Assembly (NCBI GenBank): GCA_039194425.1 | Contig: JBCCVZ010000009.1 | Coordinates: 80,997-144,996, forward strand | Reading direction: 5' to 3' | Length of the DNA stretch: 64,000 nucleotides | From: Acidobacteriota bacterium | GTDB taxonomy: Bacteria; Acidobacteriota; Thermoanaerobaculia; Multivoradales; J023 | Shown: positions 28,421 through 32,957 of the stretch, piece after piece | Numbering within the stretch: position 1 is the stretch's first letter | How the letters are laid out: the number at the start of each line of letters is the position of its first letter | The notes under the pieces: generated by a model | What the model was told of the DNA's origin: nothing | Database searches by the model: none | The model's input: only the letters and a program-made list of their open reading frames with translations | Program-made: the position numbers and the translations under genes

Positions 28421-29932
28421 ATGTCGCGCCCCACCTCCAGACCGCCGACCGGCCCGCAGTCCGTGCGTGCGATCGACGTCGCCGAGAAGCGACGGATCCT
28501 GCAGCTCGAGACGCTCTACGACCTCGCCCTGGCGCTCTCCGCCGAGCGCTCCGAAGACGAGCTGGTCGAAGAGCTGCTGCAGCAAGTGTGCGCGGCGCTC
28601 GATCCGGCGGCAGCCGTGGCCGCGACTCGCGACGTCGTCGGCGCGCCGCGCGCGGTGACCACCGTCGGCTGGCAGGGCGGCCCGCCGGACGCCGGGGCGC
28701 TCTTCGACGCCGCCCTCTGGCGCGAGCTGCTCGCGGCCGGCCAGTCGTTGACGCGCAGCGACGGCGAGCTCGCCGGGCGACCGTTCCGCGAGGCCCTGGC
28801 CGCCCCGCTCGCCTATCGCGGCGTCTTCCTCGGCTATCTGGCGCTGCTCGACAAGGAGTCGCGCTTCCGCGACACGGGCGGCTTCAGCGCCGATGATCGC
28901 CGCTTTCTCGACTCGGTCGCAGCGCTCGCCGGCGCGGCGCTCGACGCGACCCGTCGCTTCGCCGAGCTGGCCAGCCAGCGCGAGCGCCTCGAAGAGGAGA
29001 ACAAGGCGCTGAAGGGCCGCCTCGTCGACGAGCTCGCCGGCCACCGCATCGTCGCTCAGGCGCCGGCGATGCGGCGAGTGCTCGAGATCGTCGAGCGCGT
29101 CGCGCCGCGCAACGTCTCGGTGCTGGTGCGCGGCGAGAGCGGCACCGGCAAGGAGCTTGTGGCGCGCCTTCTGCACTCGCTCTCCGGGCGCGGCGGGGCG
29201 CTGGTGGCGATCAACTGCGCGGCGATGCCGGAAGCTCTTCTCGAATCGGAGCTCTTCGGCATCGAACGCGGTGTCGCCACGGGCGTCGAAGCACGGCGCG
29301 GCAAGTTCGAGCTCGCCGATCGCGGCACACTCTTTCTCGACGAGATCGGCGACATGGACCTGGCGCTCCAGGCCAAGCTGCTGCGCGCGCTCCAGGAGCG
29401 CGAGGTGATGCCGGTGGGTGGCCAGAAGCCGCGGCGAGTCGATGTCCGCGTGGTCGCCGCCACCCATCGTCACCTCGAGCAGCGCGTCACCCACCGCCTG
29501 TTTCGCGAAGACCTCTACTATCGTCTCAAGGGGGTCGAAGTCGAGCTGCCGGCGCTACGCGAGCGGCGGCAAGACATTCCGCACCTGGTGCGCCTCTTCC
29601 TCGAAGAATTCTGCCGTCGCGAGGGGCTCGAGCCACCGCGCATCGAGCCCGATGCCTTGGCCATTTTGCTCGAGCATGATTTTCCAGGAAACATTCGCGA
29701 GCTTCAGAACGTGGTGGAAGGTGCTGTCTCCCTCGCCGACGGTAGCGTCGACGCGGAGCTCGTCCGCAGCCTGCTCGGAGGCAGCAACGACGAAGACGGC
29801 GGCTCGCTCGAGCTGGAACGGGTCGAGCGGCGCCACATCTCCAAGGTCCTCCGCCTCACCGGCGGCAACAAGAGCGCGGCCGCGCGCATGCTCGGCGTCG
29901 ACCGCCGCACGCTGCAGCGCAAAGGGTTTTGA
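28421..29932 (+). CDS. sigma-54-dependent transcriptional activator (GAF sensor + AAA+ + Fis-type HTH) with a deviant GAFTGA loop
   Basis: N-terminal GAF-like ~170 aa. Walker A GESGTGKELVA. ELFGIERGVATGV where ELFGHEKGAFTGA is expected. Walker B TLFLDEIGDM. RVVAATHRHL, REDLYYRL. C-terminal HTH GNKSAAARMLGVDRRTLQRK. Confidence 0.9.
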   Translation: MSRPTSRPPTGPQSVRAIDVAEKRRILQLETLYDLALALSAERSEDELVEELLQQVCAALDPAAAVAATRDVVGAPRAVTTVGWQGGPPDAGALFDAALWRELLAAGQSLTRSDGELAGRPFREALAAPLAYRGVFLGYLALLDKESRFRDTGGFSADDRRFLDSVAALAGAALDATRRFAELASQRERLEEENKALKGRLVDELAGHRIVAQAPAMRRVLEIVERVAPRNVSVLVRGESGTGKELVARLLHSLSGRGGALVAINCAAMPEALLESELFGIERGVATGVEARRGKFELADRGTLFLDEIGDMDLALQAKLLRALQEREVMPVGGQKPRRVDVRVVAATHRHLEQRVTHRLFREDLYYRLKGVEVELPALRERRQDIPHLVRLFLEEFCRREGLEPPRIEPDALAILLEHDFPGNIRELQNVVEGAVSLADGSVDAELVRSLLGGSNDEDGGSLELERVERRHISKVLRLTGGNKSAAARMLGVDRRTLQRKGF

Positions 29933-29972
29933 GGCTCCGCTCGGGCTCGCGCCTGCGGCATCACGCCGCATG

Positions 29973-29989
29973 TGCGACAAGATGCCGCA
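29973..29989. promoter_or_regulatory. candidate enhancer (UAS) half-palindrome 1
   Basis: TGCGACA-aga-TGCCGCA, one mismatch from a perfect inverted repeat. About 205 bp upstream of the -24 element. Confidence 0.5.
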
Positions 29990-30054
29990 AGTGGCCTCTT
30001 CGAGCTGAAGAATCAGCACCTCCGAGCCGCTGATTGAGCTCTTCAAGGGAATTA

Positions 30055-30071
30055 TGCGACATTTTGTCGCA
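30055..30071. promoter_or_regulatory. candidate enhancer (UAS) palindrome 2
   Basis: TGCGACA-ttt-TGTCGCA, a perfect 7-3-7 inverted repeat. About 125 bp upstream of the -24 element and 82 bp centre-to-centre from site 1. Confidence 0.55.
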
Positions 30072-30874: not shown

Positions 30875-30901
30875 CCTGTGGGCGCGGCGCTGGAGCGAGC
30901 G

Positions 30902-31252
30902 ATGACTGAGAGCTTGAAGCTCACCGTCGACGAAGAGCGCGGCGATCTGGTCGTGATCTACACCGAGGGCTACATCAACAACCAGGGCGGCGAAGAAATC
31001 GCCAACGTCGCCTATGAGCTGATCGAGAAAGGTCACACGACGCTGCTGCTGAATCTGGCGCAGACCAAGATCGTGAATTCGATCGGCATCTCGATTCTGA
31101 TCGAGATCATCGAGAGGATGCTTCTGATCGACGGCAAGCTCGCCTTCTGCTGCCTGACGCCGACGATCGAGAAGACCTTCAACATCATGGGCCTGGCACA
31201 GTACGCGGGCATGTACAGCGACGAAGAGACCGCGATCGAAGCGCTGACCTGA
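30902..31252 (+). CDS. STAS-domain anti-anti-sigma factor (RsbV/SpoIIAA-like)
   Basis: MTESLKLTVDEERGDLVVIYTEGYIN..., LLLNLAQTKIVNSIGISILIE (phosphorylatable Ser context), TFNIMGL. An alternative GTG start at 30878 is in frame. Confidence 0.85.
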   Translation: MTESLKLTVDEERGDLVVIYTEGYINNQGGEEIANVAYELIEKGHTTLLLNLAQTKIVNSIGISILIEIIERMLLIDGKLAFCCLTPTIEKTFNIMGLAQYAGMYSDEETAIEALT

Positions 31253-31268
31253 GGCTCCCGTCAGGCTC

Positions 31269-32957
31269 ATGGCCACCGACCCCGCATCCCCGTCGTCCGC
31301 AGCCAGTCACCGCGACTCCGTCGCGACCGATCCGTCGATCTGGGCCGACCTGCTCGAGCCGTCGCGCCGGCAGCGCGACGACCGCCAGGTGATCGCGCGC
31401 ATGCTCCACGGCTGGGCGGCGACCCACGGAGTCGACGCCGCAGGCCTCTACGTCCGCGGCGCGGTGGCGGGCGCCGAGCCCGAGCTCGGTCTGCTCGCGA
31501 CGACCGGGCCCCTCGACGACACCTCGATCGAGACTGTCGCGCTGCCCGAGACGCTCGACGAACGCACCGACGGCGAGCCCCAGGGCGCGCTCCGGCACCT
31601 GGCGTTGCCCGGCGCGATGCTCGTCGCCTCCGGGAGCGGCACGCTCGACTCCACCGATCCGACGCTGCTGCTGCTCGCCGCCGCCGGTCGGATCGCGGTG
31701 CTCAAGAAAGAGGTACAGACGCACAGTTTCCAGGCGATGTTCCGCGGCGTCGAGCTCGAGGTGCTGTACGAGGTCGGGCTGGTGATCGCTTCCACGCTCG
31801 ACCTCGAAGCGCTCGGCATCGAGGTGCTGGCACGCGCCGTCTCCCTGCTCGATGCCCGTCGCGGCGCGCTCTACCTGAGCGAGGACGGTGCGGCGGCCGA
31901 TCAGGGTGAGTTCCACCTCGTGAGCTCGCTCGGTGGCGACGCGCGCGACGAGATCGACCTCGGCGGCATCGACATGGAGGCGCTCGAAGCCGGCCTGGGC
32001 GACGGCGGCGCCGGGCTGCTGCCGGGAAGCAAGCATCTGCTCGGAGCGCGAATCGACGCCGAGGGCGCGACACGCGGCCTGCTGGTAGTCAGCGACAAGG
32101 AGCGCCGCACCGGCGTCGGCCCCTTCGCTTCCGACGATCGCCGAACGCTCGCGCTCTTCGCCAGTCAGGCGGCAATCGCACTCGAGAACGCCCGCCTGCA
32201 TCGCTATGCGCTCGAGACCGAGCGCCTCGAGCGTGAGATGGAGCTGGCCTCGGAGATCCAGCGTCAGCTGCTGCCCGACTCGATGCCGTCGATGACGGGC
32301 TACGAGATCCTTGGCTGGAACCGCTCGGCGCGGCACGTCGGCGGCGACTACTTCGGCTTTCATCGTCTCGACGACGGTCGCTGGAGCCTCGTGGTCGGCG
32401 ACGTCAGCGGCAAGGGCGTGCCAGCGGCGCTGCTGGTCTCGACGCTGCACTCGGCGCTCAGCGTCTTGCTCGAGCTGAGCGACGTCGGCGCACAGCTGGT
32501 CGAGCGCCTGAACCGCCACGTCTGCGACTCGTCGAGCGCCAACAAGTTCATCACTATGATCCTCGCCGTGCTCGAGCCGTCGACCGGCCGGCTCACCTAC
32601 CTCAACGCCGGCCACAATCCGGGTCTGGTCCTCAGGCAGGCGGGCGGAATCGACCATCTGCCCGCCGGCGGCATGCCGATCGGCCTGATGCCCACGGCGC
32701 GCTACGAGGGCAGCGCGCTCGAGCTCGAGGCAGGCGACCTGCTCTGCCTGTACAGCGACGGCATCACCGAGTGCGCCGCGCGCGACGACGAGGAGTACGG
32801 CCTCGAGCGCCTCGAGGCCCTGCTCACGCGCCTGCGCGACGAGCCGCTCGACGCGATCCTGACGCGCATCGACGAGGCGATGCTCACCTTCGCCGACGGT
32901 CAGCAGCAGGGCGACGATCAGACCGTCGTGCTCGTCCGCCGCACCAGCGACGACTAG
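31269..32957 (+). CDS. GAF-domain PP2C (SpoIIE/RsbU-type) serine phosphatase
   Basis: Two GAF-like regions, then EMELASEIQRQLLP, SARHVGGDYFGF, VVGDVSGKGVPAALL, LLCLYSDGITE, DDQTVVLVRR, which are canonical SpoIIE-type PPM motifs. Confidence 0.85.
   Translation: MATDPASPSSAASHRDSVATDPSIWADLLEPSRRQRDDRQVIARMLHGWAATHGVDAAGLYVRGAVAGAEPELGLLATTGPLDDTSIETVALPETLDERTDGEPQGALRHLALPGAMLVASGSGTLDSTDPTLLLLAAAGRIAVLKKEVQTHSFQAMFRGVELEVLYEVGLVIASTLDLEALGIEVLARAVSLLDARRGALYLSEDGAAADQGEFHLVSSLGGDARDEIDLGGIDMEALEAGLGDGGAGLLPGSKHLLGARIDAEGATRGLLVVSDKERRTGVGPFASDDRRTLALFASQAAIALENARLHRYALETERLEREMELASEIQRQLLPDSMPSMTGYEILGWNRSARHVGGDYFGFHRLDDGRWSLVVGDVSGKGVPAALLVSTLHSALSVLLELSDVGAQLVERLNRHVCDSSSANKFITMILAVLEPSTGRLTYLNAGHNPGLVLRQAGGIDHLPAGGMPIGLMPTARYEGSALELEAGDLLCLYSDGITECAARDDEEYGLERLEALLTRLRDEPLDAILTRIDEAMLTFADGQQQGDDQTVVLVRRTSDD

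Follow-up and report, generated by a model that had tools for sequence, protein, structure and literature searches.

Sequence analysis and comparison of related loci revealed that a 64 kb stretch of ~70% G+C DNA from an Acidobacteriota bacterium (contig JBCCVZ010000009.1, positions 80,997 to 144,996; hereafter the window, in whose positions all coordinates are given) contains a compact regulatory cassette, in which the gene of a GAF-domain enhancer-binding protein (EBP) is followed by a predicted sigma-54 promoter and by a four-gene operon for a hydrophobic micro-protein, an RsbW/SpoIIAB-type kinase, a STAS protein and a sensor phosphatase, with no sigma factor gene at the locus. As judged from its recurrence in related genomes, the cassette is a conserved and self-contained regulatory unit of Acidobacteriota. 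With somewhat more confidence than doubt, we interpret it as a sigma-54-driven phospho-switch that would act on a partner encoded elsewhere. The original prediction, made from the letters of the DNA, had listed the elements of this region, and every one of them was found between positions 28421 and 33001 of the plus strand, in the order given there. The features of the locus are as follows.

28421-29932, plus strand: activator, an EBP of GAF-AAA+-HTH (helix-turn-helix) architecture, 503 residues (Pfam)
29954-29989: distal pair of imperfect inverted repeats, TGCGGCATCACGCCGCA and TGCGACAAGATGCCGCA, putative enhancer or upstream activating sequence (UAS) (from sequence)
30055-30071: proximal perfect inverted repeat, TGCGACA-TTT-TGTCGCA, putative enhancer or UAS (from sequence)
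30183-30198, plus strand: predicted sigma-54 type -24/-12 promoter, TGGCAG-N5-TTGCT (motif match)
30259-30417, plus strand: micro-ORF (open reading frame) of 52 codons, first cistron, with a GAGGAG ribosome-binding site upstream
30458-30874, plus strand: RsbW/SpoIIAB-type GHKL serine kinase, 138 residues (Pfam HATPase_c_2, 89 bits)
30902-31252, plus strand: single-domain STAS protein, 116 residues, in an ORF that opens with GTG at 30878 (Pfam STAS, 42 bits)
31269-32957, plus strand: GAF-SpoIIE/PP2C sensor phosphatase, 562 residues (Pfam SpoIIE, 168.8 bits, and GAF)
32976-33001: hairpin with an 11-bp stem, GAGCCAGGGAT-tgcg-ATCCCTGGCTC (from sequence)
33087-34508, minus strand: convergent PmbA/TldD gene (Pfam)

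Domain searches, which had been proposed as a check of the original prediction, backed all of its assignments of RsbW-type kinase, STAS, PP2C, GAF and EBP domains, with Pfam hits, matches in the PDB and Foldseek results. The protein described beforehand as an RsbW/SpoIIAB-type serine kinase was recognized by Pfam as HATPase_c_2, and its best PDB matches are RsbW (6m36, E 5e-10) and SpoIIAB (1th8, E 5e-6). It possesses the GHKL (HATPase_c_2) domain of ~140 residues with N-box, G1 and G2 motifs that characterizes RsbW and SpoIIAB, and the motifs E..IN..EH (N-box), D.G.GF (G1), R..G (G2) and MD.V..GT are invariant in 19 orthologues. The STAS protein is closest to SpoIIAA (1th8_B, E 4e-9). The serine of its VNSIG motif aligns with the phosphorylated serine of SpoIIAA (DSSG; 1th8_B/1tid_B), which is mutated to alanine in 1tid, and is likewise invariant in 19 orthologues; the alignment points to a STAS fold whose helix 2 opens with a phosphorylatable serine, as in SpoIIAA and RsbV. 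Its designation as an anti-anti-sigma type STAS protein therefore agrees with both Pfam and the SpoIIAA match, and only the start needed revision: the starts of the orthologues, a GGAG ribosome-binding site and a 116-residue gene call on a public contig agree, so that translation most likely begins at ATG 30902.

The third enzymatic assignment, a GAF-PP2C phosphatase of SpoIIE/RsbU type, was recovered by Pfam (GAF and SpoIIE) and by structural comparison. In the AlphaFold 2 (AF2) model of the protein (pLDDT 86), an N-terminal alpha/beta domain and then a GAF domain are each followed by a long helix, and a SpoIIE/RsbU-type PPM domain comes last; the top Foldseek matches of the model are SiaA (6k4e), RssB, the RsbU domain of Rv1364c and SpoIIE. 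Residues D360, D378, D497 and D549/D550 are invariant, together with other motif residues, in a 30-sequence alignment, and the protein has the SpoIIE/PPM domain, metal-binding aspartates and matching fold expected of an RsbU/SpoIIE phosphatase. More than 2500 homologues are present in the database; the top 120 share 50-62% identity with it, and those of them that are named all belong to Acidobacteriota, Thermoanaerobaculia or Holophagales. None of the cassette proteins reached a curated NCBIfam equivalog cut-off: the kinase scored 56.5 bits against 145 for RsbW and 55.4 against 135 for SpoIIAB, and the STAS protein 40.1 bits against 53.45 for TIGR00377 (anti-sigma factor antagonist) and 33.2 against 114.75 for TIGR02886. 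We class them as relatives and not orthologues of the Bacillus proteins.

The four genes of the operon are separated by gaps of 40, 27 and 16 nt, and a simple terminator scan found no terminator-like site within the operon on the plus strand. The cassette had been predicted to end at a hairpin facing a convergent PmbA-like gene, and both are in place. The hairpin lies between the stop codons of the phosphatase and PmbA-like genes and is a putative bidirectional terminator; it has no T-tract and was for that reason left uncalled by the scan. An Rfam search of the leader and intergenic regions returned no known RNA element above threshold. A sub-threshold match to the Acido-Lenti-1 RNA motif (33038-33081, minus strand, 21.5 bits against a gathering score of 37, E 0.12) falls in the spacer between the phosphatase and PmbA-like genes. 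A role of the cassette in anti-phage defence was considered and rejected, PADLOC giving no match for its proteins, with the activator matching only generic RtcR/PspF AAA+-HTH models.

The absence of a sigma factor, which the original prediction had put at the centre of its description, was borne out in the window and in the related loci L001-L021. Searches by tblastn with RpoE, SigB, SigF and RpoD regions 2-4 against the window and all 84 loci found no sigma-70-family gene in the window or in L001-L021, while the positive control, an extracytoplasmic function (ECF) sigma factor, was recovered in L034. Pfam detected no Sigma70 domain in 39 window ORFs, ~13 larger window ORFs being covered by tblastn only, and no sigma domain in ten neighbours of the cassettes in L008, L016, L019 and L020; the neighbour annotations of L001, L003 and L004 contain no sigma domain within 8 kb. 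The co-encoded sigma factor that accompanies an anti-sigma kinase is thus missing both from the window and from ~7 kb around the cassette in 18 of the 19 related loci checked. It had been stated beforehand that the prediction would fall if homologous cassettes were regularly followed by a sigma factor that is merely displaced here. Such a gene was looked for, and the displacement is refuted for the locus: in the homologous loci a PmbA-like gene or unrelated neighbours, and no sigma-70-family gene, follow the phosphatase gene. The cassette encodes kinase, STAS protein and PP2C phosphatase together without a sigma factor, as non-canonical partner switches do.

The cassette is not peculiar to the window. 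The loci compared were contigs encoding three phosphatase homologues and 17 species-representative genomes (L005-L021) taken from 80 genome-scan loci, L002 being a duplicate of L001. About 15 orthologous loci, in metagenome-assembled genomes (MAGs) of Acidobacteriota (Thermoanaerobaculia, Holophagales and others), keep the order of the cassette. This gene-neighbourhood comparison, which the original prediction had recommended, showed the EBP, the micro-ORF and the three-gene kinase-STAS-phosphatase set conserved in the same order in L001 and L003-L015, with a more divergent version in L016, L017 and L019. Identity to the window proteins is 63-71% for the activator, 37-69% for the micro-protein, 45-63% for the kinase, 67-80% for the STAS protein and 48-56% for the phosphatase. 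The STAS protein is the best-conserved component also when the loci are compared with one another, its mean pairwise identity being 75% and that of kinase and phosphatase 58% each. A homologue search with the STAS protein was saturated by orthologues of 77-85% identity and therefore gave no view of more distant contexts.

The surroundings of the cassette differ from locus to locus. Downstream neighbours include PmbA/PCMT/RDD genes, a MaoC/TonB receptor pair, a PIN-type gene, a weakly aspartyl-protease-like gene, an enoyl-CoA hydratase gene and a GGDEF-EAL gene, and the upstream neighbours vary too (e.g., asparaginase in L008 and isocitrate lyase in L016). A convergent PmbA-like gene directly follows the phosphatase gene in L003, L004, L005, L010, L011 and L012. 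An output gene shared by the loci and adjoining the cassette was sought and rejected, no conserved partner appearing among the differing neighbours of the compared loci. In L019, the most divergent cassette locus, a REC-PAS-GGDEF-EAL gene (9325-11238 of that locus) lies ~1 kb downstream of the phosphatase gene; a link to cyclic di-GMP through this gene is possible, and is seen in L019 only.

The 326 bp intergenic region between the activator gene and the micro-ORF harbours one perfect and two imperfect inverted repeats. Measured to the start of the -24 element, the perfect repeat TGCGACAtttTGTCGCA (30055-30071) starts 128 nt upstream, the imperfect repeat TGCGACAagaTGCCGCA (29973-29989) 210 nt upstream and the third, also imperfect (29954-29970), 229 nt upstream; both of the TGCGACA-type palindromes foreseen in the original prediction are therefore present, whereas the third repeat had gone unlisted. 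The promoter element TGGCAGcactcTTGCT (30183-30198) is the sole exact match to TGGCAS-N5-TTGCK on both strands of the window and would place the transcription start near 30208-30210. The consensus-spaced TGGCAG-N5-TTGCT element predicted at 30183 also proved to be kept in relatives: TGGCA[G/A]-N5-TTGC[G/T/C] stands upstream of the small ORF in all 16 loci, window included, against a background of 0.076 equally good matches per kb per strand in the same sequences. The ATG of the micro-ORF follows the start of the element by 41-55 nt in 14 of the 16 loci, by 76 nt in the window and by 128 nt in L015.

The orthologous loci contain two or three inverted repeats with the core GACA-N3-TGTC. With at most one mismatch allowed, a proximal site is found at -103 to -125 relative to the promoter in 14/16 loci and a distal site at -183 to -216 also in 14/16 (window included in both counts), and the density of such sites is 9.0 per kb in the 220 bp upstream of the promoter versus 0.27 per kb elsewhere (~34x), the sequence upstream of the promoter being otherwise poorly conserved between loci. 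In L004, L006 and L014, an extra gene stands between the activator gene and the operon, and the repeats and promoter remain with the operon; the layout follows the operon and not the activator gene where the two are separated. Repeats and -24/-12 element together form, to judge from their sequence and spacing, the layout expected for an enhancer-dependent sigma-54 promoter. The scan of positions 29932 to 30259 yielded no sigma-70-like promoter. Because the -24/-12 element is conserved, sigma-54 control is the best reading of this region, though not proven, and we infer RpoN dependence of the operon; adjacency and co-conservation point to the neighbouring activator as the protein that would bind the repeats.

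Outside the cassette, the window has few exact or near-exact repeat sites. One repeat-like site, GCGGCATCATGTCGC (28413-28427), overlaps the start codon of the activator gene and might indicate autoregulation; only 3 of 14 loci (window, L012 and L013) have a comparable site close to where the activator gene begins, and an autoregulatory site was not counted as part of the system. Another repeat-like site, the near-perfect GCGACATTTTTTCGC at 43869, falls in the intergenic area by a ParE-family toxin gene (43399-43701, minus strand), whose candidate partner ORF overlaps or adjoins it (43399-43923 region). A second conserved promoter-like element, TGGCGCATCGCTTGCA, is located at 34539-34554, just upstream of the PCMT gene that heads a neighbouring RDD/SpoIIM-like/DUF4350/MoxR/DUF58 cluster. 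In other loci this element reads TGGCTTG-N4-TTTGCA (L003 11100, L004 11018, L005 10129, L009 12477, L010 10877, L012 8755, L013 8440, L014 11046). It fits GG-N10-GC and also a sigma-70-type promoter with a -35 element TTGCA, a 17-nt spacer and a -10 element AGAAT; no GACA-N3-TGTC repeats lie near it.

The activator was described beforehand as a GAF-AAA+-HTH sigma-54 activator, and its domains were all found by Pfam (GAF_3, GAF_2, Sigma54_activat at 209 bits, AAA_lid_14 and HTH_8), including the Sigma54_activat AAA+ domain with Walker A (GESGTGKE) and Walker B (FLDEIGD) motifs intact and the C-terminal Fis-type HTH that typify an EBP. The departure from a standard EBP lies in the sigma-54 contact loop: the L1 loop (residues ~283-295, ELFGIERGVATGV) reads GVATGV in place of the GAFTGA contact motif expected of an EBP, with the phenylalanine replaced by alanine, and GVATGV is invariant in 15 of 15 aligned orthologues (L001, L003-L007, L009-L015, L017 and L019). 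In the literature, the GVATGV string was found in only one regulator, DVUA0100 of Desulfovibrio vulgaris, where it also stands in place of GAFTGA; its authors noted that such substitutions might interfere with sigma-54 binding, and the protein was nevertheless predicted by comparative genomics to activate sigma-54 promoters of type III secretion operons (PMC4641369). DVUA0100 resembles the window activator in the identical loop and in its association with predicted sigma-54 promoters (PMC4641369), and differs from it in its predicted control of type III secretion operons and in an N-terminal region of unknown type. GAF sensors had been predicted on both the activator and the phosphatase, in agreement with Pfam, and the two GAF domains are related (25% identity, E 5e-4, shared motif DKESR...G.F..DDRR.L), with cross-matches between loci down to E 5e-14; this is compatible with, but no proof of, the sensing of a similar signal by both proteins.

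The first cistron, predicted as a 52-codon hydrophobic ORF, is present behind its GAGGAG site and has orthologues in the same position. It encodes a hydrophobic protein of 52 residues, MLNSARNRVETLPQVPVQALLSAGTLFGFAWLLLQNKIHPFVIYLLQVYLTF. Orthologues of 51-63 residues, ending in ...IHP.V.Y.L.(V/L)YL(T/S)(F/L), occupy the first cistron in L001 and L003-L015, and L016, L017 and L019 have a divergent small ORF that ends in LTF or LVF. Among the differing codons of the micro-ORF, 35% are synonymous in frame, versus 14% and 6% in the shifted frames; by this measure it evolves as a coding sequence, and on conservation and position the micro-protein is a genuine fifth component of the cassette. It falls into no known family: Pfam returned only an insignificant VirB8 match (E 0.19, below cut-off), and NCBIfam and PADLOC nothing. 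Its 82 database clusters are all unnamed or 'hypothetical', those with an organism label all being from Acidobacteriota, and a profile search of 1.84 billion representatives collected only 60 members, nearly all of 51-57 residues and matching to the C-terminus. The AF2 model consists of a short helix and a long helix spanning residues 17-51 (mean pLDDT 78), and hydropathy peaks at residues 17-34 and 38-52; the protein is probably membrane-associated, as a partner or tether of the module. Its C-terminus (30376-30417) is an invariant ...YLLQVYLTF, with hydrophobic residues at -1, -3, -5, -7 and -9 and a terminal Phe. Outer-membrane beta-barrel proteins have a C-terminal signature similar to this end; AF2 predicts a helix there instead.

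We propose that the parts work together as follows. The GAF-EBP would bind the two or three GACA-N3-TGTC repeats located about 110-125 and 185-230 bp upstream of the -24/-12 promoter and, upon a signal at its GAF domain, would enable sigma-54 RNA polymerase to transcribe the four-gene operon of micro-protein, kinase, STAS protein and phosphatase. The RsbW-like kinase would bind the STAS protein and phosphorylate its invariant VNSIG serine, and the PP2C phosphatase would remove the phosphate under the control of the sensor domains, N-terminal and GAF, that it carries itself. The unphosphorylated STAS protein would be the effector, so that the kinase would serve as the off-switch and the phosphatase as the on-switch, and the 52-residue hydrophobic protein may be a membrane-associated partner or tether of the module. 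Because the unit contains no sigma factor, the switch would act on a partner encoded elsewhere in the genome. The choice of the STAS protein as effector is weakly favoured by its conservation, 75% against 58% for the two enzymes, since SpoIIAA and SpoIIAB, the one canonical pair compared, differ little in conservation (73% vs 76%).

Several points weigh against the proposal of a sigma-54-driven switch with an output encoded elsewhere. According to studies of PspF, the phenylalanine of GAFTGA is needed to engage sigma-54, and the activator is without it. The support for activity of a GVATGV loop comes solely from the comparative-genomic prediction for DVUA0100 (PMC4641369). L008 has no adjoining activator gene, its promoter and repeats being kept, and L020 (Chloracidobacterium) contains kinase, STAS protein and phosphatase without an activator or a convincing -24/-12 site; with these two loci, the link between cassette and sigma-54 is not universal. 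The argument from STAS conservation is weak, as it relies on one canonical comparison and as a small protein that contacts two enzymes is constrained in any case. The sigma-negative result covers the 64 kb window and the locus neighbourhoods, and a sigma factor may be encoded elsewhere in the genome. All carriers found are uncultured MAGs.

The main alternative is that the kinase sequesters an unlinked sigma factor, of group 3 or another group, which the dephosphorylated STAS protein frees in the manner of RsbU-RsbV-RsbW-SigB, so that the two systems would differ in gene linkage alone. True anti-sigma factors are the nearest solved or curated relatives of the kinase (RsbW 6m36, SpoIIAB 1th8 and the NCBIfam models), all kinase motifs are intact, and some other partner switches have been suggested to act on sigma factors that are unlinked or unidentified (PMC8256260). 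Set against this are the lack of a sigma gene within ~7 kb in 18 loci and in the 64 kb window, kinase scores far under the equivalog cut-offs (56 vs 145 for RsbW and 55 vs 135 for SpoIIAB) and a conservation of the kinase (58%, STAS 75%) unexpected for a protein that must keep two binding partners. Overall, we consider a distant sigma factor a serious but rather unlikely target. The promoter itself might be independent of sigma-54 or not driven by this activator, the GVATGV EBP being perhaps unable to engage sigma-54 and acting at the repeats as a repressor or as a sigma-70 activator. The replacement of Phe by Ala in all orthologues is in keeping with this, as is VpsR, described as an EBP homologue that lacks the sigma-54-contact residues and acts with sigma-70 (PMC6158489). 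However, all 16 loci, window included, retain GG-N10-GC with TGGCA and TTGC, its distance to the first cistron being fixed where the surroundings have diverged, Walker A and B are intact, DVUA0100 with the same GVATGV sits in operons with predicted sigma-54 promoters (PMC4641369), and the search between 29932 and 30259 gave no sigma-70-like candidate, all of which makes this the least probable of the explanations considered.

The output could also lie within the cassette, if the GHKL protein were an anti-activator of the neighbouring GAF-EBP (or of sigma-54) and the STAS protein an anti-anti-activator, giving a self-limiting loop whose output is the wider regulon of the activator. The Psp, Nif and Hrp systems contain anti-activator circuits that are themselves subject to sigma-54 control. 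Activator, promoter and cassette are tightly co-conserved, the relatedness of the activator and phosphatase GAF domains is consistent with a common signal, and the PspA-PspF anti-activator circuit provides a precedent (PMC4641369). This loop is nevertheless improbable in our judgement, given the three-gene switch of L020 without activator or -24/-12 element, the missing adjacent activator in L008 and the few repeat sites outside the cassette in the window, which leave no wider regulon visible. We give equally little credence to its fuller form, a partner switch aimed at the sigma-54 machinery in which the kinase is the anti-activator, the STAS protein the anti-anti-activator, both GAF domains read the same ligand and the 52-residue protein tethers or gates the module at the membrane; if true, such an activator-directed switch would extend anti-sigma partner switching to enhancer-binding proteins.

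Comparison with characterized systems places the cassette near, but not within, several of them. It shares with the RsbU-RsbV-RsbW-SigB and SpoIIE-SpoIIAA-SpoIIAB-SigF switches of Bacillus subtilis a GHKL kinase, a single-domain STAS protein with a conserved serine and a PPM/PP2C phosphatase that has a regulatory region at its N-terminus. Unlike them, it has no co-encoded sigma factor, its order is kinase-STAS-phosphatase instead of STAS-kinase-sigma, it carries a -24/-12 promoter and an adjacent EBP where the B. subtilis switches are autoregulated by the released sigma factor, and it has an additional conserved micro-protein and scores below the RsbW, SpoIIAB and SpoIIAA equivalog cut-offs. 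The original prediction went too far in stating that the arrangement matches no characterized system: sigma-less partner switches form an established class, including SypA/SypE, BtrUVW, RbaVWY and HmpUVW (PMC8256260), and the syp locus of Vibrio fischeri, with genes for the STAS protein SypA and the kinase/phosphatase SypE, relies for its transcription on the sigma-54-dependent activator SypG (PMC4517449, PMC10120452). The syp locus thus resembles the cassette in being a sigma-less partner switch in a locus transcribed via a sigma-54-dependent activator, and SypA, phosphorylated on a conserved serine, is its downstream output, with an unknown target (PMC10120452, PMC4517449, PMC8256260). It differs in the fusion of kinase, receiver and PP2C domains within SypE, in having a response regulator, SypG, where a GAF-EBP stands here, and in belonging to an 18-gene polysaccharide cluster with an obvious output. 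In the cassette, the switch takes up the entire operon, with GAF domains as its sensors.

Trios of kinase, STAS protein and PP2C phosphatase that have an output other than a co-encoded sigma factor also occur as BtrU/V/W of Bordetella, RbaV/W/Y of Rhodobacter, HmpU/V/W of Nostoc and, in Anabaena, HenR with a STAS-glycosyltransferase, and in several of them the unphosphorylated STAS protein is thought to be active (PMC8256260, PMC13555669). Such a role has been proposed for SypA, RbaV and HmpV (PMC8256260, PMC10120452), and a recently reported sigma-less switch acts on a glycosyltransferase (PMC13555669). These systems come from other phyla, and their descriptions include no dedicated EBP with a -24/-12 promoter, no sensing by two GAF domains and no associated micro-protein. 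The NifL-NifA, PspA-PspF and HrpV/HrpG-HrpS pairs are similar in that an EBP adjoins or controls the genes for its modulators. NifL is itself a GHKL-domain protein and NifA a GAF-EBP. The cassette proteins are not homologous to PspA or HrpV, so the likeness to these pairs, of which PspA-PspF is cited in PMC4641369, would be one of analogy only. The general idea of a sigma-less, sigma-54-driven partner switch is not new, because the sigma-less class is accepted and syp pairs SypG with a STAS protein and a kinase-phosphatase, and the absence of a linked sigma factor alone will not surprise specialists. In the literature searched we found no report linking Acidobacteria with partner switching or such a cassette with sigma-54, and no description of the five-part unit as a stand-alone operon, of the dedicated GAF-EBP with an invariant GVATGV loop, of the conserved enhancer geometry, of the dual GAF sensors, or of the new micro-protein, conserved across a large uncultured Acidobacteriota clade.

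Outside the cassette, a block of synteny extends downstream at 36478-43395, with counterparts in L003 and L004 at 12-17.6 kb, and encodes an RDD protein, a SpoIIM-like membrane protein, two unannotated ORFs, a DUF4350 protein, a MoxR-type AAA+ protein (in L004) and a DUF58/vWA protein, the whole from RDD to DUF58/vWA resembling a MoxR-vWA (BatA-like) cluster. Adjacent genes for an MBOAT (AlgI-like) and an AlgX-type SGNH protein at 55065-57963 suggest polysaccharide O-acetylation. From 58000 to 64000, the G+C content falls from ~0.71 to 0.61-0.63, and DUF6036 nucleotidyltransferase-like and AHSA1/SRPBCC genes are found there; this segment may be acquired DNA.

Acidobacteriota are abundant in soils and sediments, and their regulation has barely been studied. 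With thousands of STAS and phosphatase database clusters, the cassette is among the better-conserved signalling units of the phylum, and it offers a compact case of a partner switch with an output other than a linked sigma factor. Its five parts and promoter can be reconstituted, which makes directly testable the question of what sigma-less Rsb modules control. A naturally invariant GVATGV loop beside a textbook -24/-12 promoter is of interest in itself, as is the micro-protein, which constitutes a new and narrowly distributed family. Finally, the design with two GAF sensors, one at a transcriptional and one at a post-translational gate, could work as a feed-forward or AND circuit.

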